This document shows, in pieces, positions 2,710-45,977 of a DNA stretch of 45,977 nucleotides. Positions within the stretch are counted from its first letter, which is position 1; each line of letters opens with the position of its first letter. A model generated the notes under the pieces. That model worked only from the letters and a program-made list of their open reading frames with translations, did no database searches and was not told where the DNA came from. The position numbers and the translations under genes were made by a program. Source of the DNA: a virus. Where the stretch lies: positions 1 to 45,977 of IMG/VR virus record IMGVR_UViG_3300045988_043313; one strand, given 5' to 3'.

Positions 2710-2754
2710 CTAAAACATGTACCACAACTTTTTGAAGGTTCTGTGATACAATAT
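2710..2754 (+). promoter_or_regulatory. Conserved box + extended -10 promoter, copy 1
   Basis: CTAAAACATGTACCACAACTTTT, then 11 nt, then TGATACAATAT (TG-n-TACAAT). The same architecture and spacing occur at 37968 and 43670. Confidence 0.65.
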
Positions 2755-2759
2755 ATTCG

Positions 2760-3072
2760 TAGGGAAGATTTGTAAGCAGAAATGCTTGACATAGACATTT
2801 TTATTGCTTTCCTCCTTTCTTTAAGCAGATGCGTGTCCTTAATAGAAACAGGTTCGGGGTGGAATCTGGAGGTTGAAAAGCGGATGCAATTTCCGACACG
2901 TATCATTGCCGCTAGTGCATGGCGGAATATCTCCTTGTGAGCATATAACTGAACAGTGAAATCCAACCCGTGCAGAGGTGCGCGACCGTATAGGCGGTGT
3001 TGACGTAGCCCGAACGTCCCGTGTTTAGGCATAGCACGTAAAATACCTTGCTAACCCGGGAATCCGGGTTAA
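2760..3072 (+). ncRNA. Candidate structured non-coding RNA / long structured leader
   Basis: No credible ORF or RBS. GAAA-tetraloop hairpin 2774-2787. Long-range helix 2806-2815 with 2868-2881. Hairpins at 2909-2925, 2985-2998, 3002-3018, 3020-3038 and a strong one at 3053-3070. Lies downstream of the promoter box and abuts a tRNA. Confidence 0.4.
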
Positions 3073-3144
3073 GGCAGGATGGAGAAGTGGAATCTCACAA
3101 GGTTCATACCCTTGAGAACGGCGGTTCGAATCCGTCTCCTGCAA
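3073..3144 (+). tRNA. tRNA with CAU anticodon (Met/fMet or Ile2 type), no encoded CCA
   Basis: Full hand-folded cloverleaf. Acceptor 3073-3079/3137-3143 with a G1.A72 mismatch. U8. D stem GAGA/TCTC with a GG loop. Anticodon stem CAAGG/CCTTG, loop TTCATAC. 5-nt variable loop. T arm GGCGG-TTCGAAT-CCGTC. Confidence 0.75.
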
Positions 3145-3262: not shown

Positions 3263-3336
3263 TGGAATGTAGCTCAGTTGGGAGAGCGGAGGACGCATAG
3301 TCCTTGACGTCGGTGGTTCGAGTCCACCCTTTCCGA
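3263..3336 (+). tRNA. Non-canonical tRNA-like gene, CAU anticodon
   Basis: D arm GCTC-AGTTGGGA-GAGC and T arm GGTGG-TTCGAGT-CCACC are canonical. The acceptor has U1.G72 and a U.U mismatch, the anticodon loop is CGCATAG (G at position 33), and the variable loop is 6 nt. Confidence 0.45.
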
Positions 3337-4123: not shown

Positions 4124-5293
4124 ATGCCAGCAAAAACAAATCTTATTATGACTAATGATATTCATGTCACAGCACGTGAGATTGACTTTGTTACCAGATT
4201 CGAAAGAAACTGGCAGCACTTACGTGATATTCTGGGTATCATGAGACCTATCAAAAAGCAGCCGGGTGCTGTACTCAAGTCCAAATACGCAGAGGGTACT
4301 TTACAGAGCGGAAAAGTTGGTGAGGGTGAGGAAATCCCTTACAGCAAATTCGTTGTAAAAGAAAAGGACTATGCGGAAATGACTATCGAGAAGTACGCAA
4401 AGGCTGTGTCTATCGAAGCAATCAAGGATCACGGTTACGAGAACGCTGTTCAGATGACCGATGATGAATTCCTTTTCCAGCTTCAGACTGATGTTACCGG
4501 CAGATTCTATGACTATCTGAAAACCGGTACACTTACTTCCACAGAAACAACATTCCAGATGGCTCTGGCAATGGCTAAGGGTCGAGTAGAAAACAAATTC
4601 AAGCAGATGCACAGAAATGTGACTGGTGTTGTTGGATTTGTGAATATTCTGGACGTATATGAATATCTCGGAGCAGCTGAGATTACTATTCAGAACCAGT
4701 TCGGATTCCAGTATATGAAGGATTTTATGGGATTCAACACAATCTTTTTACTGTCTGACAGCGAAATCCCGAGAGGACAGGTTATTGCTACTCCTGTTGA
4801 GAACATTGTCCTGTACTATGTAGACCCGAACGAATCTGACTTCGCAAGAGCAGGACTTGTATACACCGTATCTGGTGAGACAAACCTGATCGGATTCCAC
4901 ACTCAGGGCAACTACCACACAGCAGTGTCCGAAGCGTTTGCGGTTATGGGACTGACTCTTTTTGCAGAATACATTGACGCAATCGCAGTAATTACCATTG
5001 ATGAAACACCAACACTTGGTACCCTGACAGTAACATCTGCAGCTGGAACAGCAACTGGTGATACGAAAATCACTGTAAATCCGGCTAAGGAAAATGCTAA
5101 CAACGTATATAAATACAAAGTTGCAACAGACGCAGTAACTGTTGGATATGGACAGAATCTCAGAAACTGGAGTACTTGGGACGGAAAATCTGATATCACA
5201 GCGGCAACCGGACAGAAGATCACAGTGGTTGAGTGTGACGGAACATACAAAGCGCTGAATGCCGGAAGTGCAAGCGTAACAGCAAAATCATAA
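4124..5293 (+). CDS. Major capsid protein with C-terminal Ig-like (Big_2-like) domain
   Basis: 389 aa, positioned after the scaffold gene. The C-terminal ~95 aa (TLTVTSAAGTATGDTKITV...) look like a bacterial Ig-like domain. Confidence 0.85.
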   Translation: MPAKTNLIMTNDIHVTAREIDFVTRFERNWQHLRDILGIMRPIKKQPGAVLKSKYAEGTLQSGKVGEGEEIPYSKFVVKEKDYAEMTIEKYAKAVSIEAIKDHGYENAVQMTDDEFLFQLQTDVTGRFYDYLKTGTLTSTETTFQMALAMAKGRVENKFKQMHRNVTGVVGFVNILDVYEYLGAAEITIQNQFGFQYMKDFMGFNTIFLLSDSEIPRGQVIATPVENIVLYYVDPNESDFARAGLVYTVSGETNLIGFHTQGNYHTAVSEAFAVMGLTLFAEYIDAIAVITIDETPTLGTLTVTSAAGTATGDTKITVNPAKENANNVYKYKVATDAVTVGYGQNLRNWSTWDGKSDITAATGQKITVVECDGTYKALNAGSASVTAKS

Positions 5294-5808: not shown

Positions 5809-6642
5809 ATGGCTAATTATGGCGTGCCGTATAAGGGCAGTAAAAATAAAATTGCAAAGCAAATTATTGATTTCTTACCTTCCGGCGGTACGTTATATGA
5901 TTTATTCGCAGGCGGTTGCGCAATCACACATTGCGCTATGGAATCTGGAAAATATGACAGGTATATCGTTAATGATATTGAACCAGGAATTACTCAACTT
6001 TTCATTGATGCAGTTAACGGGAAATATGCAAATGAAAAAAGATGGATTAGCCGAGAAGATTTTTTTAAATTAAAAGAATCAGATCCATATGTAAAATATT
6101 GTTGGAGTTTTGGAAACAATGGACGCGATTATCTTTATTCAAAAGCAATAGAACCATTAAAAAAACATCTTCACAATATATTTTTTGCAGAAAATTTGCA
6201 GGAAGCAAGGCTTGAATGGAAAGCGTTTATTAGAGATTTTTGCACAAGCAAACAAAGTCTGCAAAGTCTGCAAAGTTTGCAAAGTCTGCAAAGTTTGGAA
6301 AGGCTGCAAAGTTTGCAAAGTCTGCAAAGTTTGGAAAGGCTGGAAAGGCTTTGTACGGACTACGGAAATATAAGAATAGAGTCAGATGCTGTAATTTACT
6401 GTGATATTCCATATAAAAATACAAACAGATATGGAGATGAAAAAGCAGAATTTGACTATAACTCTTTTTATGACTGGGCTTGTTCACAGAACGTTCCTGT
6501 ATTTATATCGGAGTACGATATGCCAGAAGATAGATTTGAATGCGTACTTGAAATGAAAAAGCAATCTTGCATGGCTGCTACAAAAACGCTTTCAGTAACT
6601 GAGAAATTATATATTCCTAGGAAGAAAGGAAAGATAAAATGA
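5809..6642 (+). CDS. DNA N6-adenine methyltransferase (Dam-like, D12 class)
   Basis: N-terminal YKGSKNK, SAM motif DLFAGG, and catalytic DIPY (a DPPY variant) near residue 200. AT-rich compared with its neighbours. Confidence 0.8.
   Translation: MANYGVPYKGSKNKIAKQIIDFLPSGGTLYDLFAGGCAITHCAMESGKYDRYIVNDIEPGITQLFIDAVNGKYANEKRWISREDFFKLKESDPYVKYCWSFGNNGRDYLYSKAIEPLKKHLHNIFFAENLQEARLEWKAFIRDFCTSKQSLQSLQSLQSLQSLERLQSLQSLQSLERLERLCTDYGNIRIESDAVIYCDIPYKNTNRYGDEKAEFDYNSFYDWACSQNVPVFISEYDMPEDRFECVLEMKKQSCMAATKTLSVTEKLYIPRKKGKIK
6253..6351 (+). repeat. In-frame 9-bp tandem repeat tract (11 units) inside the methyltransferase gene
   Basis: Units are CAAAGTCTG/CAAAGTTTG (QSL) and GAAAGGCTG (ERL). They are in frame with the CDS and lie between the SAM motif and DIPY. 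Confidence 0.95.
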
Positions 6643-8395: not shown

Positions 8396-8479
8396 ATCGT
8401 CGGAGGTGGTAGATTTCGTTGCAACCACGCACCCTATGGGTTAAAAGAGATGCAGGAGCCGCAACGCCTGCCCGACGAT
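8396..8479 (+). promoter_or_regulatory. Structured intergenic element upstream of the major tail gene
   Basis: Closing helix ATCGTCGG (8396-8403) with CCGACGAT (8472-8479). Inner helix CGTTGC (8417-8422) with GCAACG (8461-8466). Hairpin ACCC-TAT-GGGT at 8431-8441. No T-run follows. Confidence 0.4.
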
Positions 8480-34518: not shown

Positions 34519-34616
34519 TTACATTCTTATTAGGATTCACCCTTGGAATCATATTCGGAGTAATTAGTCTTGTATGCGTAGCAATCATGTACGACAAGCA
34601 CCACCCAGACGATTAG
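34515..34616 (+). CDS. Small single-TM protein (33 aa)
   Basis: ATGA coupling. ITFLLGFTLGIIFGVISLVCVAIMY. Confidence 0.4.
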   Translation: MITFLLGFTLGIIFGVISLVCVAIMYDKHHPDD

Positions 34617-34629
34617 AAAGGAGAACGGT

Positions 34630-34944
34630 ATGCTGACAAGGAACAAAAAGCTGAAAGACTACGGTATTCCGGCAGAAGACATAGAAAAACTGAATGCGAT
34701 GCTGAAAGACTTCCCGGCAGAGTACGGATACCTGCTTTCCAGTGCCGCCTTGTCAGCTTGCCCGAAAAACACGGTGATAGCGGATATGGTTATCGAGAAT
34801 ATCTTGCACCGGAAAAGTTACAGGAAGATCAGCAAAGAAAGATATATCCCGATGAATCCAAAAGACTTCTACGGATACAGACGCAAGACCGTCGCTGTAC
34901 TGTATGAGAGGATGCGGTTGTTGGGAGTGTGGGAGGAAAAATAA
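34630..34944 (+). CDS. Putative late transcriptional regulator (sigma region-4/ArpU-RinA-like), tentative
   Basis: AAAGGAG RBS. The C-terminal segment ILHRKSYRKISKERYIPMNPKDFYGYRRKTVAVLYERM resembles an HTH of sigma-r4 type. Assignment is by eye only. Confidence 0.35.
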   Translation: MLTRNKKLKDYGIPAEDIEKLNAMLKDFPAEYGYLLSSAALSACPKNTVIADMVIENILHRKSYRKISKERYIPMNPKDFYGYRRKTVAVLYERMRLLGVWEEK

Positions 34945-37923: not shown

Positions 37924-37930
37924 AATTAGA

Positions 37931-37955
37931 GAGTCGGTATTTACCGGCTCTTTTT
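37931..37955 (+). terminator. Rho-independent terminator ending the early region
   Basis: 8-bp stem GAGTCGGT/ACCGGCTC (one G.U pair), 4-nt loop, then T5. Confidence 0.8.
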
Positions 37956-37967
37956 ATTGCAAAATTC

Positions 37968-38012
37968 CTCAAACATGTACCACAACTTTTCCGCCAACCT
38001 ATGATAGAATAT
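37968..38012 (+). promoter_or_regulatory. Conserved box + extended -10 promoter, copy 2 (upstream of terS)
   Basis: CTCAAACATGTACCACAACTTTT, then 11 nt, then TGATAGAATAT. Confidence 0.7.
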
Positions 38013-38060
38013 ACTCAGAAGTGTTACTATGGGGTTTTATAGACAGTTGGAGGTGAGAAC

Positions 38061-38498
38061 GTGGGAATGACGCCAAAGTACACAAGCGTTGAAGAGATTG
38101 AGAGCAAAATAGAACAGTATTTCGAAGATTGCAAAGGTTATCCATTAACCGATGAAAAAGGGAAACAAATATTTAACAAGTTTGGATCCCCTATTTTCAT
38201 AGATGTTCACCCTCCGACCGTTACAGGACTTGCCTTGGCCCTTGGATTTACGAGCAGACAGGCACTTTTAAATTATCAGGCAAAGCCGGCATTTGTTGAC
38301 ACGATTACGCGCGCGAAAGCCAGAGTGGAACAGTACGCAGAGGAAAGGCTATTTGATCGTGACGGTTCAAATGGCGCTCAGTTCAGCTTGAGAAATAATT
38401 TTAAGGGATGGGATGCTGATAAGAAAAATGATGATTCTGGAGATGGAAAGATTACGATTGTGAATAATATTCCAAGGCCGGAGAAGCAGAATGAATGA
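38061..38498 (+). CDS. terS: Terminase small subunit
   Basis: GGAGGTG RBS. HTH-like PPTVTGLALALGFTSRQALLNY. Directly upstream of and overlapping terL. Confidence 0.8.
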   Translation: MGMTPKYTSVEEIESKIEQYFEDCKGYPLTDEKGKQIFNKFGSPIFIDVHPPTVTGLALALGFTSRQALLNYQAKPAFVDTITRAKARVEQYAEERLFDRDGSNGAQFSLRNNFKGWDADKKNDDSGDGKITIVNNIPRPEKQNE

Positions 38499-41362: not shown

Positions 41363-43654
41363 ATGGCTGATACATTCAAGGGAATAATCACAGCAGATGG
41401 AAAGAAGAGACAGTTGCCTTATAGAAATGTTATCGAAACGCCCGTGTCTGATGAAACATTGTCCATACAGGGAGCATTTGCCGACTCCAAAGCCGTAGGC
41501 GACAAATTCAAAGAAGTAAAGACAGAAACTGATTCACTAAAGGAAGATTTAGTTAAATATAATTGTTCTGAATTGTTATATTCAGACGCAGTATATAAAA
41601 GTGGAACGTCTCAAGGAATAACTTACACATGGAATGCTGATAAAACAATATGTGAAGTAAAAGGAACAGCAACAGGATATGCAGCATCTAATAATATTTT
41701 TTACAATGTTAGTGATTTGCCTAAAAATCTAAATGCTGGTGAAAAATATTATACCAAGTTTAAATCAAATGATTTAAAAATTGCATTACAAGTTGGATTT
41801 TTCAAAGATGGAGCAACAAGTAATGCTGAAACAGCTTTATACATTAACAACTTCATACTTGATATTCCCAGTAATTGTACAGGTATGTATATCAGATTAT
41901 ATATTCAGAATGGATATACAGTGGATGGAACTTGTACCAATATTGGTGTTTTTAATACTGTATCTAACAAAGAACTAAAAGAAAAAATGGATATATTAGA
42001 AGAAGATGCAGTATCCCTTGCAAATTCAGTTGAAAATCCAGAGTTATTTCTAATTGATGCAACTTTCACAGATGGAATTTCTAATGGTATAACATACAAA
42101 TGGAATGAGTCAAAAAGAGAATGTGCTGTTAGTGGTATAGCAAATAACTTGTCACTTAGAAACATTTATTATAGTGAAACTTCGCTTCCAAGAAATATTA
42201 AAGCTGGTTACAAATATTCTTTGAAATATAAAACAACAAATAAAAATATAAGACTGGTTATAGGTTGTTTTTTAAATGGTGCAACAAGTGGTGCTGATCG
42301 TACAATCATTACAGATGATACAATTATTAGTATTCCTGGTAATTGCACAGGTATGTATATCAGATATGAAGTTTCTAACGGTCTTGAAGCAAACGGTAGT
42401 ATCACAAACGTTAGAATTTTTAAAAACAACAACTCGCATTCTCTAAGTGGACCCACTACTATTGTGAAAACAACAAGCACTGATACCAATATAGCAGGTA
42501 GATCGTTTTCATTAATTCCTAAAAAATACAATAGAAAACCAATTCTCACAATTATTGACGATGATGGAAGAAATTCATTTTATACAGTTTATAAGTCTTT
42601 AATTCAAAAGGGGTATCCTATCGTATGTTGTATAGACCCTGTAAACTGGACAGGGAAGACTGACCGATTTATGTCATGGGAACAAGTTCATGAACTTGAA
42701 GAAATTGGGTGTGAATTTATAGTTCATGGCGCTTATCCATTTATGATTGGTGATAATCAACATTATAAAACAGCAGACGAATTAAGATTGTATTTTGAAG
42801 AAGCACAAGCTGAATTTAAAAAGCAGAAACTTTCTGACTGGGATTTAGCTGTTTATCCACAGAGTGACCATACTCATGAAACAAGACTTATTCTTTCTGA
42901 ATACTTTAGAGGTGCTTTTGCTAGTAAAGAACATGACGATATTTATTACAGCACACCACCTATTTCACAGTACAGAATTGCGAGATGGTTCTTTAACTAT
43001 GATGATTTATCAAGTGGGTTTGAAACAGCTAAGTTACAGATAGATGGTGCTATCGCAAATAATGGTTGGTTTGTTATTTGCACTCATTCAGAAATGTTTG
43101 ATACAGATGGAAAAGCAATTCAAACACTTGAGTCTATCATAAACTATGCAGAACAAAATGGTATGAGCATTGTTAATGCTAGAGATGGTATAGATATGTT
43201 CTCAAATCTTTTACAAATTGGTGATTTTAGTAACACAGGAAGTAATTATGGCTATCCTTGCAGAGTTATTGGATGCGATGGTACTGAATTTATTAGTCCA
43301 CAGTTTGAAAACAATCATATTAGTATTTCAGATGGGGAAAACACCATACAAAAGATAGCTAATATCTCTAATATTGGAAACGGATTTTGTATTGTAACGA
43401 TAGATGCAGGTATTAGCGAATTGAAAGCTGTATCAACTTTACTAAAAATTACAGGATTGAATAGTAAACCTATTATTCAGAGTTTTCCAGCAGTTATAAG
43501 AATTAATGCAAACAAGTACAAAAATGTTGTTGCTGTTAGAAGTGGAAATGATATTTTATTCAAAGAATCAAATGGGGATAATATGTTGATTTCATCTTCT
43601 GATATGACTACATATACAAGCATTGAATTAAGCTACATAGCACAAATGCTTTAG
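41363..43654 (+). CDS. Fibre-like protein: N-terminal anchor/coiled coil, two tandem beta-sandwich repeats, polysaccharide-deacetylase-like domain
   Basis: Repeats at roughly residues 66-198 and 226-354 share GITY.WN...C.V.G...NCTGMYIR...G...TN. ILTIIDDDGRNSF is a NodB-like DD motif, with ICTHSEMF later in the sequence. Markedly AT-rich. Confidence 0.6.
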   Translation: MADTFKGIITADGKKRQLPYRNVIETPVSDETLSIQGAFADSKAVGDKFKEVKTETDSLKEDLVKYNCSELLYSDAVYKSGTSQGITYTWNADKTICEVKGTATGYAASNNIFYNVSDLPKNLNAGEKYYTKFKSNDLKIALQVGFFKDGATSNAETALYINNFILDIPSNCTGMYIRLYIQNGYTVDGTCTNIGVFNTVSNKELKEKMDILEEDAVSLANSVENPELFLIDATFTDGISNGITYKWNESKRECAVSGIANNLSLRNIYYSETSLPRNIKAGYKYSLKYKTTNKNIRLVIGCFLNGATSGADRTIITDDTIISIPGNCTGMYIRYEVSNGLEANGSITNVRIFKNNNSHSLSGPTTIVKTTSTDTNIAGRSFSLIPKKYNRKPILTIIDDDGRNSFYTVYKSLIQKGYPIVCCIDPVNWTGKTDRFMSWEQVHELEEIGCEFIVHGAYPFMIGDNQHYKTADELRLYFEEAQAEFKKQKLSDWDLAVYPQSDHTHETRLILSEYFRGAFASKEHDDIYYSTPPISQYRIARWFFNYDDLSSGFETAKLQIDGAIANNGWFVICTHSEMFDTDGKAIQTLESIINYAEQNGMSIVNARDGIDMFSNLLQIGDFSNTGSNYGYPCRVIGCDGTEFISPQFENNHISISDGENTIQKIANISNIGNGFCIVTIDAGISELKAVSTLLKITGLNSKPIIQSFPAVIRINANKYKNVVAVRSGNDILFKESNGDNMLISSSDMTTYTSIELSYIAQML

Positions 43655-43669
43655 TTAACCAGCAAAAAA

Positions 43670-43714
43670 CTAAAACATGTACCACGACTTTTGACGAAAG
43701 AGGTGATATAGTAT
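43670..43714 (+). promoter_or_regulatory. Conserved box + extended -10, copy 3 (overlaps the RBS/ATG of the MuF-like gene)
   Basis: CTAAAACATGTACCACGACTTTT, then 11 nt, then TGATATAGTAT. The final AT are the first two bases of ATG 43713. Confidence 0.5.
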
Positions 43715-44942
43715 GCTTAGTCCTGAATATTTACGGCAAATTACAGAGGGCAGTGAACAGATAGCAGAAGAACTGCATCAGTACATCATCTCTGAGATTG
43801 TGTCGAGAATGATAACAAGAATTGGAAGAGGCGAAGATTATATCCTGACCAATGCCGATGCGTGGAGAATCAGAACACTACAGGAATCTGGTGAACTGCT
43901 AGAGGATATTCTGGCGGAACTATCCAAATACACCAAACGCGAACAGCAGGAACTTCTTGAAGCGTTTGAAGATGCCGGAATCACTGCTCTCGATTATGAT
44001 GATAAGATATACAAGGCGGCAGGATTAAGCCCTGTACCGCTCGAACAGTCCCCAACTATGATAAGACTCATGGAGCGAAATATGCTTGCGACTATGGGAG
44101 AGTGGAAGAATTTCACAAGAACAACTGCGAGTGCCGCTCAGAGACTCTATATCGAACAATGTGACCTTGCATATAACCATGTGATGACTGGAGCAGTTGG
44201 CTATACGCAAGCCATCAAAGAGGCGGTTAATAACGTTGTGAGTGATGGTGTTACGGTCACATATCCATCTGGCAGAAAAGACACGATCGAAACAGCAGTC
44301 GCACGTTCTGTCAGAACTGGCGTGGCTCAGGCTACTGGAGATATATCCCTCAAACGCATGGAAGAGATGGGCTGGGATTTAGTTCTGGTCAGTGCTCACA
44401 TGGGAGCCAGAACAGGTGACGGTGGTGAGAACCCGGGAAATCACGCATGGTGGCAAGGAAAGATATACTCTCGTTCTGGCAAGAGCAAGAAATTTCCACC
44501 GTTCTCATTGACCGGATATGGAACGGCGAGTGGATTGTCAGGGGTCAACTGTCGGCATAGTTTTGGAGCCAGTGATGGAGAATTTAATCCCTATACAGAA
44601 CTATCAGCACAGGATAAAGCCGACAAAGGCAAACAGTACGAAAAAGAACAGCGGCAACGTGCTTATGAGCGAAGAATCCGCAAAACGAAGAGAGAAGTCC
44701 TTGGAATGCAAACGGCGGTTGACAACTGCAAGGACGAACAGACGAGATTTGCACTCCAGCAAGACCTTGACCGGAAGTCTTATCTTTTGCAGAAGCAAAA
44801 TGCTGCATACAAGGCTTACTGCAAGCAGAACGACCTGAGGGAGCTACAAGACCGACTCATGATTGCTAAGTGGAACCGCCAGAATGCCGCAAAAGCCAGA
44901 GGAGCGGCAAAGAGATATAAAACAGCAAAGGGGATTGACTGA
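43713..44942 (+). CDS. Minor head protein (Mu F / SPP1 gp7-like)
   Basis: 409 aa in the usual post-portal position, with a basic coiled-coil C-terminus. Confidence 0.8.
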   Translation: MLSPEYLRQITEGSEQIAEELHQYIISEIVSRMITRIGRGEDYILTNADAWRIRTLQESGELLEDILAELSKYTKREQQELLEAFEDAGITALDYDDKIYKAAGLSPVPLEQSPTMIRLMERNMLATMGEWKNFTRTTASAAQRLYIEQCDLAYNHVMTGAVGYTQAIKEAVNNVVSDGVTVTYPSGRKDTIETAVARSVRTGVAQATGDISLKRMEEMGWDLVLVSAHMGARTGDGGENPGNHAWWQGKIYSRSGKSKKFPPFSLTGYGTASGLSGVNCRHSFGASDGEFNPYTELSAQDKADKGKQYEKEQRQRAYERRIRKTKREVLGMQTAVDNCKDEQTRFALQQDLDRKSYLLQKQNAAYKAYCKQNDLRELQDRLMIAKWNRQNAAKARGAAKRYKTAKGID

Positions 44943-45332: not shown

Positions 45333-45638
45333 ATGAGCATATCAGAATTTGTACAAGTATTCCTCTCAATTTGCGGAGGAGTGTCTATTGTCGGAGGAGC
45401 GGTGGCCGTAATTCTTAAGTGGATTACTCCGGCATTTCGACTCAACAAGCGAGTTGAGACACTGGAAGAACATGATAAGCGAGATTACGAGAGTCTTCAG
45501 AGGATTGCGGAACGTGATTCATTGATTCTGGAAGTATTGTCAACAATGTTGGACAGTCAGATTAGTGGAAATAACGTCGAGGAATTAAAAAAAACAAAAC
45601 AGAAGCTTACAAATTATCTTGCACAGAATCAACGTTAG
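45333..45638 (+). CDS. Single-pass membrane protein with coiled-coil C-terminus
   Basis: AAGGAG RBS. N-terminal TM segment VFLSICGGVSIVGGAVAVIL. Confidence 0.6.
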   Translation: MSISEFVQVFLSICGGVSIVGGAVAVILKWITPAFRLNKRVETLEEHDKRDYESLQRIAERDSLILEVLSTMLDSQISGNNVEELKKTKQKLTNYLAQNQR

Positions 45639-45658
45639 CATTAGTAAGGGGTATGCTC

Positions 45659-45859
45659 ATGAAATTATATGTGTTCACGAAAAAAGATATAGACAGGTTC
45701 TTGATAGAGTGCAATTTCACACCGGACGAAGAAAGACTGTTCCGGTTGAGATGCCAGGAACGCACTCTCGAATACTGTGCTGAGCAGATGAATGTGAGCA
45801 TATCAACAGCAAAGCGGTTAAGCCGGAGGGTAAATAATAAAATAATCAAAGTGTGCTGA
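45659..45859 (+). CDS. Small sigma-70 region-4-like HTH protein
   Basis: LTPDEERLFRLRCQERTLEYCAEQMNVSISTAKRLSRRV resembles a region-4/LuxR-type HTH. AAGGGG RBS 8 nt before ATG 45659. Confidence 0.5.
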   Translation: MKLYVFTKKDIDRFLIECNFTPDEERLFRLRCQERTLEYCAEQMNVSISTAKRLSRRVNNKIIKVC

Positions 45860-45880
45860 TACTTTTTGGATACTAATTAG

Positions 45881-45913
45881 AGCCAGAAACGACCTGTTTC
45901 CGGTTCTTTTTTT
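45881..45913 (+). terminator. Rho-independent terminator
   Basis: Stem AGCCAGAAAC/GTTTCCGGTT (one mismatch, one G.U pair), 5-nt loop, then a T-run. Confidence 0.7.
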
Positions 45914-45922
45914 ATGCAAAAA

Positions 45923-45977
45923 TATAGTTATAGAAAGTCATAGAGTAAGTTATAGAAAGTCATAGAGTAAGTTATAG
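45923..45977. repeat. Terminal duplication of nt 1-55 (circular-closure overlap)
   Basis: The last 55 nt are identical to the first 55 nt. Because the overlap lies in the 22-bp array, the true repeat copy number is uncertain. Confidence 0.9.

Follow-up and report, generated by a model that had tools for sequence, protein, structure and literature searches.

Introduction

Several described phage systems place a phage-specific element where a -35 would be expected. In the Gram-negative hosts of phages Mu and P2, the activators Mu C/Mor and P2 Ogr/P4 Delta each serve several late promoters, which have a recognisable -10 element, no -35 element and a shared activator site at or upstream of the -35 position, the sites having clear dyad symmetry at about -43.5 or -55. 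In the middle promoters of phage T4 a MotA box at -30 replaces the -35 element and host sigma-70, acting with AsiA, reads the -10 element. Extended -10 promoters of the Bacillota (TRTGn) and the late promoters of Thermus phage P23-45 carry TG one base 5' of the hexamer and are -35-independent. The late activators of Gram-positive phages form the Ltr superfamily of phage late transcription regulators, comprising RinA, ArpU, LtrA/Sigma70_r4, LtrB/DUF1492 and LtrC (Quiles-Puchalt 2013, PMC3753634). A gene position just 5' of terS is classic for these activators, and the phages that they control have a single late promoter and processed 5' ends (PMC3753634).

Here we analyse a 45,977-nt viral contig from IMG/VR (IMGVR_UViG_3300045988_043313; the whole stretch is hereafter called the window), in which a sequence-only reading had noticed a 23-nt box with an extended -10 element repeated three times at constant spacing. 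That reading had proposed late promoters dependent on a phage factor, for which two small sigma-region-4-like proteins encoded in the same contig were put forward as candidates. Comparison with close and distant relatives points to one of these two proteins, a member of an uncharacterised family of ~100-aa proteins, as the probable reader of the box.

Results

Bases 1-55 of the window repeat bases 45923-45977, which marks it as a complete, circular contig of a phage, and the late genes therefore continue across the contig junction. They are ordered terS, terL, portal, a 763-aa ORF, a MuF-like gene and three small genes, followed beyond the junction by five ORFs, a RAGATH-21 RNA, two tRNAs and the scaffold and capsid genes. 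This temperate, siphovirus-like gut phage probably has Blautia or a related member of the Lachnospiraceae as its host: a prophage with a 96%-identical regulator adjoins a coaD gene sharing 82-88% identity with that of Blautia, and among isolated phages Blautia phage Montmirail comes nearest. A search for the box in GTDB (one genome per species) gave 20 scattered single matches in unrelated taxa, which is chance level, and no prophage. Nothing was found in the literature on RAGATH-21 or on late promoters of Blautia phages.

Three copies of an element consisting of a 23-nt box, an 11-nt spacer and TGATAnAnTAT are present at 2710, 37968 and 43670, all on the plus strand (copies 1 to 3, here P1, P2 and P3; Table 1), and their sequences read exactly as originally described, with two substitutions in the box and a spacer of constant length. 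We searched the window with a 20-nt core, allowing up to three mismatches, and obtained these three sites in all against 0.02 expected from shuffled sequences; a repeat finder grouped the same sites as one family (D3). A near-match at 34586 (CATGTACGAC) lies within a small ORF and lacks a -10 element, and was treated as a chance occurrence rather than as a fourth copy. TGA precedes the hexamer in all three copies, placing TG at -15/-14, one base 5' of the -10 hexamers TACAAT, TAGAAT and TATAGT, and the hexamer located 17 bp upstream of the -10 is ACAACT or ACGACT, unlike a sigma-A -35. The description of these sites as extended -10 elements lacking a sigma-A-like -35 therefore holds. A generic consensus promoter scan called none of the three sites, because they have no -35 element.

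Table 1. Promoter elements, terminators and associated genes in the window, with predicted features marked as such
Feature	Position	Strand	Sequence or remark
P1 (copy 1), box	2710-2732	+	CTAAAACATGTACCACAACTTTT
P1, spacer	2733-2743	+	
P1, -10 region	2744-2754	+	TGATACAATAT
P1, extended -10	2744-2752 (hexamer 2747-2752)	+	TGATACAAT; predicted start ~2759
RAGATH-21 RNA	2828-2904	+	First product 3' of P1; 86.9 bits (gathering threshold 70.3)
104-aa protein gene	34630-34944	+	Proposed box-specific late activator
Intrinsic terminator	37928-37953, with U-run to 37960	+	11-bp stem, -15.1 kcal/mol, z -4.79, then UUUUUAUU
P2 (copy 2), box	37968-37990	+	CTCAAACATGTACCACAACTTTT
P2, -10 region	38002-38012	+	TGATAGAATAT
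P2, extended -10	38002-38010 (hexamer 38005-38010)	+	TGATAGAAT; predicted start ~A38017
terS	38061-38498	+	First gene 3' of P2
P3 (copy 3), box	43670-43692	+	CTAAAACATGTACCACGACTTTT
P3, -10 region	43704-43714	+	TGATATAGTAT
P3, extended -10	43704-43712 (hexamer 43707-43712)	+	TGATATAGT; predicted start ~43719, within MuF codon 3
MuF-like minor capsid gene	43713-44942	+	Pfam minor-capsid-2 profile
68-aa protein gene	45653-45859	+	Sigma-region-4/LuxR-type helix-turn-helix protein; last gene of the P3 unit
Terminator after 68-aa gene	45879-45912	+	End of the P3 unit; -12.7 kcal/mol, z -2.85, then U7 run

The surroundings of the three copies were also as first reported. P2 follows the terminator that closes the early/middle operon and precedes terS, P1 precedes the RAGATH-21 RNA with the two tRNAs and the scaffold and major capsid genes downstream of it, and P3 precedes the MuF-like gene. 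Dulem virus 35 and the related contigs L140 and L208 likewise have the promoter ahead of RAGATH-21. Neither P1 nor P3, both of them within the array of late genes, has a terminator ahead of it. The P3 box begins 15 nt past the stop codon of the 763-aa ORF, and the P3 -10 element overlaps the ribosome-binding site and ATG of the MuF gene, a caveat that had been raised at the outset and that is correct. We take ATG 43713 to be the true MuF N-terminus, because the Pfam minor-capsid-2 profile aligns from its position 1 at MuF residue 2. The terminator that ends the P3 unit is kept in the distant relatives L206, L207 and L208.

An exact search of IMG/VR with the core matched at least 119 stretches, and the same three orthologous sites carry the element in more than 100 related phage contigs, so that the search of related phages suggested with the original reading bears out conservation of the box. 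The exceptions to these orthologous sites among the matches listed are L070 and L101/L108; L070 is a single match and apparently unrelated. A comparison of contexts anchored on the 10-nt core alone comprised 38 distinct contexts for P1, 47 for P2 and 60 to 64 for P3. The box is invariant in the distinct P1 and P2 contexts and conserved in those of P3, and at all three sites the spacer has a constant length while its first bases vary freely. Within the extended -10, TG is invariant (38 P1, 47 P2 and 64 P3 contexts) and T-12, A-11 and T-7 are kept, with exceptions in two of the 64 P3 contexts, and positions -13, -10 and -9/-8 vary. The P3 hexamer of the relatives is TATACT, TATATT, TATGCT or TATAGT in 62 of 64 contexts, the others being one TGTATT and one TACATT, and is preceded by TGA in all 64; their P1 extended -10 is TGTGRTAMAAT. 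Fixation of TG, T-12, A-11 and T-7 together with free variation elsewhere indicates that the extended -10 is read as DNA.

Some relatives are recombinant at these sites. In L007/L109 the flank of P2 continues into the spacer and -10 of P1. In L101/L108 a lysin-like gene comes after the flank and box of P3, with no -10 element at the canonical spacing, and in L280 a different gene follows the entire P3 module. A role of the box as a recombination junction at module borders, which had been offered as an alternative, is thus borne out as a side effect, since these contigs break at the box, but not as its primary role.

Boxes of different sequence and the same layout were found in distant relatives, ahead of terS and ahead of RAGATH-21/scaffold. 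The general layout is AAAnrTG with a lineage-specific part of ~9 nt, then 21-24 nt to TGnTAnnnT, the TG of AAAnrTG and that of the extended -10 being 22-25 nt apart, and the box copies inside one genome agree with each other. Dulem virus 35 (syntenic, ~70% identity) carries AAAGGTGTATACAAAAA twice, before terS and before RAGATH-21/scaffold, each box being 21 nt from TGnTAnnAT. The boxes of L206 (AAATGTGTAYAYAAA), L207 (GTGTACACAAAAT, three copies), L208 (AAATGTGCGYATAG, two copies) and L202/L205 (CAACATGTCACCTC) stand at the same distance from their -10 elements. In L206 and L207 the third promoter comes after MuF and a terminator, directly 5' of homologues of the 128-aa, 101-aa and 68-aa genes, and is the equivalent of P3 in these more distant phages. 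There are three box promoters in the window and two or three per genome in its relatives.

The first of the two proteins put forward as the phage factor, of 104 aa, belongs to a family of ~100-aa proteins with at least 266 clusters at 50% identity. Its residues M75-N76-P77-K78 stand directly before a near-invariant DFYGYRRK helix, and these four pre-DFY residues are hypervariable in the family, 74 members showing at least 55 variants of them. For the window protein, Pfam, NCBIfam and PHROG gave no match even at E<=1. None of 74 diverse family members matches the RinA, ArpU, Sigma70_r4, DUF1492 or LtrC Pfam families or has a sequence relative in the PDB, and tblastn of the family against 50,697 phage records gave two matches, neither of them functionally annotated. 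Foldseek searches of the PDB and BFVD with the 104-aa model returned no significant match and otherwise only uncharacterised phage proteins, the best relevant fold match being ECF sigma L (6dv9_F; TM 0.43, probability 0.30, E 3.6). The AlphaFold model (pLDDT 88) has a helix at residues 64-71 and then a long C-terminal helix at 77-98, whose N-cap is formed by the variable residues 75-78, and the modelled arrangement of helices 64-98 resembles a helix-turn-helix. As no similarity to a known DNA-binding family was detected, DNA binding by these proteins is a property that we infer.

In many relatives the gene for this protein is directly 5' of the terS promoter (Dulem virus 35, L208, L229, L254, L256, L257-L308, L317 and L318), with a gap of 15 nt between gene and promoter where measured (L229, L257-type loci and L256). 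The window is an exception in that its 104-aa gene is 3 kb from P2.

When proteins and promoters are compared, the lineage-specific half of the box changes together with the four pre-DFY residues. Proteins with xK(R/K)D, where x is A, I, V or M, go with a TGGGGAC box (seven independent proteins, 37-53% identical), those with ISK(N/T), 30% identical, with GTGTATACAAA, those with xTK(A/V) with (T/C)CACCA, ATEN with GTGGTAGAGAGC, STPE with TGTGCGYATAG, and MNPK and INRR with AACATGT(A)C. The box paired with INRR-type proteins is not uniform, being CATGTCACCTC in L202 and the somewhat different CATGTACCAC in L309. AKRD and TTKA proteins are 51% identical and yet have different boxes, indicating that the link follows the motif and not overall relatedness. 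Close relatives with an extra AKRD paralogue beside terS (L140, L145, L134, L167, L280 and L309) carry GGGGAC boxes both at terS and, 10 kb off, at P1, and retain the window-type box (A box) at P3; covariation is thus also seen at sites unlinked to the regulator gene.

A simple covariation statistic is inflated by the relatedness of the sequences. In a blind test, six family members were picked by protein motif alone and their DNA was inspected afterwards; four of the six predictions held and none was contradicted. L315, L317 and L318, with xK(R/K)D, have a GGGGAC box 18-19 nt from TGnTAnnnT, and L319, with VTKA, has a CCACCA box (AAATGTGCCACCAT) at the expected spacing. The late operon lies outside the locus in the two remaining members, L316 and L320. 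No box was identifiable in L303 and L310. With box type following the protein in this way, the 104-aa protein is strongly favoured of the two candidates, and the comparisons suggest that its family probably reads the box; the sigma-region-4 resemblance first ascribed to it is, however, unconfirmed by profiles and by Foldseek.

The second candidate, of 68 aa, does have the sigma-region-4/LuxR-type fold that was proposed for it, but is probably not the reader of the box. Its AlphaFold model (pLDDT 90) is a four-helix fold that Foldseek matched to 2h27, 4g6d, 2o8x and 8jzt (TM 0.64-0.74, probability ~1), among them SigE region 4 on -35 DNA and SigA region 4. The Pfam Sigma70_r4 score is 16.5 bits, below the cut-off of 24.1, and there are weak matches to an ECF sigma model and to the PHROG 'sigma factor' family, with coverage of region 4 only (positions 117-162 of the 165 in the ECF profile). 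As a query it gave at least 598 IMG/VR stretches, and the protein was found in every lineage with this promoter type. The recognition helix, MNVSISTAKR(L/I)S(R/K)RVNNKII, is near-identical in the window, L206, L207 and L309, and the P1/P2 boxes of these phages differ (CATGTACCAC, GTGTAYAYAAA, GTGTACACAAAAT and TGGGGAC). L309 (MT835739.1), a 46-kb relative, has the window-type helix and yet carries GGGGAC boxes at both P1 and P2, and Dulem virus 35 has a different helix and a box that is nearly that of L206. Covariation between this protein and the box was consequently absent in the window, L206, L207, L309 and Dulem virus 35, and we disfavour it as the reader because changes of box are not matched by changes in its recognition helix. 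Two related possibilities were rejected. A phage alternative sigma factor does not fit a protein without region 2 and a -10 of sigma-A type, and a split sigma factor made of the 101-aa ORF (45333-45638) and the 68-aa protein does not fit the 101-aa product, a membrane/coiled-coil protein with no region-2 signal.

Discussion

The sequence features, conservation, gene-promoter linkage and covariation observed here point to the three elements as phage-specific late promoters, which we regard as very likely. For the reading as a whole, that host sigma-A uses them as extended -10 late promoters lacking a -35 and that small phage activators switch them on, our estimate of the probability is roughly 0.7. 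The earlier idea of late promoters needing a phage factor gains support, at the level of comparative genomics, from conservation in more than 100 relatives, from the lineage-specific boxes and from their linkage with a protein. The binding, activation, start sites and timing described below are predicted from these comparisons.

Host sigma-A RNA polymerase would read the extended -10, TRTGnTAnnnT, and in place of a usable -35 there would be the 23-nt box at about -49 to -27. The 104-aa protein would be produced from the early/middle operon, which the 37928 terminator closes, and would bind this box and recruit or stabilise the polymerase, in the manner of activators that overlap the -35 or take its place. 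The box is envisaged as bipartite, with a family-wide AAAnrTG and a part of ~9 nt that would be read by the four hypervariable residues with which the C-terminal helix begins. P2 would then restart transcription past the early terminator into terS, terL and portal, P1 would boost RAGATH-21, the tRNAs, scaffold and capsid together with the genes past them, and P3 would serve the 128-aa, 101-aa and 68-aa genes as far as the terminator at 45879-45912. Because the predicted P3 start lies inside the first MuF codons, its transcript could not encode MuF but only the three genes that follow. Such a role for P3 agrees with where its equivalent lies in L206 and L207; it is awkward in that the transcript would carry a MuF leader of ~1.2 kb that cannot be translated, which counts against it.

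The same box could be read by the 68-aa protein, alone or standing in for region 4 of sigma-A, and several properties are in keeping with such a role: a true region-4/LuxR-type four-helix fold, the weak Sigma70_r4, ECF and PHROG 'sigma factor' matches, presence in every lineage with this promoter type, a gene in the P3 unit that would make self-regulation possible, and a TGTAC(C)A core common to the A box and the L206/L207 boxes in phages whose helix is constant. We nonetheless consider it unlikely, given that a near-identical helix coexists with differing P1/P2 boxes (window, L206, L207 and L309), that the helix of Dulem virus 35 differs when its box is nearly that of L206, and that the protein is encoded inside the late region, so that the circuit would need another starter. 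A model in which the boxes are not promoters but RNA processing or stabilising sites in one long late transcript meets a difficulty at P2, which comes directly after a strong terminator and would therefore rarely be transcribed. Nor does it account for a DNA-level -10 signature (TG, T-12, A-11 and T-7) kept at a fixed spacer length, for a box type that changes along with a protein gene, or for folding that gives no significant structure. We judge it very improbable, even though P1 and P3 lie within the late array without a terminator before them and processed 5' ends have been taken for multiple starts in other Gram-positive phages (PMC3753634).

Equally improbable, in our view, is a host factor, whether an alternative sigma or an activator, that would read the box, with the differences between lineages reflecting differences between hosts. 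Most of the contigs have no known host, and the GTATA or GCATA in some boxes presumably resembles forespore sigma -35 elements, both of which leave room for such a factor. Against it, very close relatives of the window (~85-95% nucleotide identity), whose host range is presumably the same, exchange the P1/P2 box along with a phage regulator gene, and the -10 is of sigma-A type. The sporulation sigma factors sigma-F and sigma-G were rejected, as the spacing from GTATA to the -10 is unfit (judged by eye in the Dulem virus 35 comparison sequences). Finally, the recombinants that break at the box (L007/L109, L101/L108 and L280) are what would be seen if it were a homology patch for module exchange with no regulatory role. 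Recombination at a conserved regulatory sequence is, however, an expected by-product in mosaic phages, and a homology patch would leave unexplained the fixed distance to an extended -10, the orientation shared with the late genes and the covariation with a protein; we attach hardly any weight to it.

Box-specific activation by the 104-aa family, if true, would be the late-gene switch of a very abundant group of phages that infect Lachnospiraceae of the human gut, and would give a function to an unannotated and unstudied protein family of at least 266 clusters. It would also supply a simple protein-DNA recognition rule, of four residues against about nine bases, and orthogonal activator-promoter pairs that could serve as genetic parts for gut bacteria of the class Clostridia, and would help to predict the timing of prophage-borne gene expression. 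A more speculative extension, which we put forward tentatively, is that the ~100-aa proteins are a new class of detachable '-35 readers' for the host polymerase, in which a four-residue head sets the ~9-nt box, and that many mutually orthogonal pairs are swapped as cassettes, two or three per genome, so that the late genes are divided into groups under separate control. An A-box unit with the 68-aa protein, beside GGGGAC-box packaging and capsid units, would be an example of such a division.

Compared with described systems, the 104-aa protein is, like the Ltr activators, the small product of a phage gene that closes the early region and in most cases adjoins terS on its 5' side; it also resembles them in its apparent specificity for its own terS control region, which is judged here by comparison only (box-residue covariation and blind predictions). 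Its proposed role as a switch for packaging, morphogenesis and lysis genes is likewise that of an Ltr protein. Unlike the Ltr proteins, the family has no sequence or profile similarity to RinA, ArpU, Sigma70_r4, DUF1492 or LtrC; there are two or three box promoters per genome rather than a single terS promoter, and in some genomes two box types accompany two paralogous regulators. T4 middle promoters are similar in that a phage-specific box would take the place of the -35 and the host primary sigma would act on the -10, but no AsiA-like co-factor was identified here, and the box is longer and further upstream. As in Bacillota TRTGn and P23-45 promoters, TG stands one base 5' of the hexamer, often as TRTG. 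Here, by contrast, the extended -10 is always accompanied by a conserved box at constant distance, and this implies that an activator is involved instead of plain -35 independence. With Mu C/Mor and P2 Ogr the window shares several late promoters that have a common site in place of the -35. It differs from them in that the 104-aa family has no Pfam match, in contrast to the helix-turn-helix of Mor/C and the zinc finger of Ogr/Delta, and in that a short palindrome is present in only some boxes and the site extends to -27. By analogy, and as a member by sequence of none of these systems, the locus would appear to combine the logic of the Ltr activators with a multi-promoter, -35-less design like that of Mu C/Mor or P2 Ogr.

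Paired regulators and promoter boxes

Some close relatives of the window (L257-L308, L309, L001 and L176) carry two paralogous members of the proposed box-reading regulator family, one of the MNPK/INRR type and one of the AKRD/ATEN type (named for the four residues preceding DFYGYRRK), and two box types likewise co-occur in each genome. This sharing of one genome by two regulators and two box types suggests that groups of late genes are under separate control. The A box, which in the window lies upstream of an extended -10, was also found with a P3-type upstream flank in front of a lysin-like gene in two related stretches, L101 (6127) and L108, where no -10 occurs at the usual spacing. Read by eye from its translation, this gene apparently encodes CHAP and SH3-like domains.

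Start codon of MuF and features downstream of P1

At P3, the proposed late promoter overlapping the start of MuF, the first MuF codon (window 43713-43715) is ATA rather than ATG in 34 of the 64 distinct relatives with P3 sites in L001-L201. The ribosome-binding site is intact in these ATA-start relatives and the 19 residues following the first codon are conserved; either translation starts weakly at ATA, or the -10 is under stronger constraint than the start codon. Two tRNA genes with the anticodon CAT are located shortly 3' of P1, the proposed late promoter whose box begins at 2710. A tRNA with this anticodon can serve as initiator, as elongator Met tRNA or, once lysidine-modified, as an AUA-reading Ile tRNA, and the two genes may be connected with the ATA start codons of MuF. 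About 70 nt separate a RAGATH-21 RNA from the predicted P1 start upstream of it, and the order promoter, RAGATH-21, scaffold is retained in the distant lineages Dulem virus 35, L140 and L208.

Tabulated genes and RNAs of the window
Feature	Position	Score (bits)	Remarks
RAGATH-21 RNA	2828-2904	86.9	
tRNA gene, anticodon CAT	3073-3144		G1-A72 mismatch
tRNA gene, anticodon CAT	3263-3336		position 33 is G instead of U
Skipping-rope RNA (Rfam RF02924)	8396-8479	59.9	flanked by head/tail genes
763-aa ORF	41363-43654		between portal and MuF

Candidate regulatory sequences

From lineage to lineage, the leader that separates terS from its promoter is conserved (window 38011-38060, L202 14490-14530, L206 ~800-850), in pieces such as ACTCAGAAGTGTTACTATGG and ATTGAGAAACTATAG. 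Folding of this leader gave no significant structure; its role could be regulatory or related to pac. The terminator of the gene for the 68-aa HTH protein is followed by a stretch (window 45913-45977 running on into 1-99) that carries TTATGCAAAAATATAG and, 3' of it, ~3.5 tandem copies of the 22-nt unit GTAAGTTATAGAAAGTCATAGA, which immediately precede ORF 81-560. The stretch may represent a second regulatory site, perhaps targeted by the 68-aa protein; its beginning is shared with L206, L207 and L208 as a conserved sequence.

Other genes and repeats

No significant match to the 763-aa ORF was obtained with Pfam, PHROG or NCBIfam. It contains a 35-nt direct repeat, with copies at 41863 and 42331, and its place is taken by quite different genes in relatives. 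Within ORF 5809-6642, about twelve tandem copies of the 9-nt unit CAAAGTCTG (6235-6356) code for a tripeptide repeat, and the major capsid protein (4124-5293) has an S-layer SbsC-type domain at its C-terminus (Pfam PF18316, E 1.4e-16). In L311, where a Blautia-like contig contains a related prophage, a reverse transcriptase gene (RVT_1) adjoins a 23S_rRNA_IVP-like gene in the region 613-1632, a pair that may constitute a diversity-generating retroelement.
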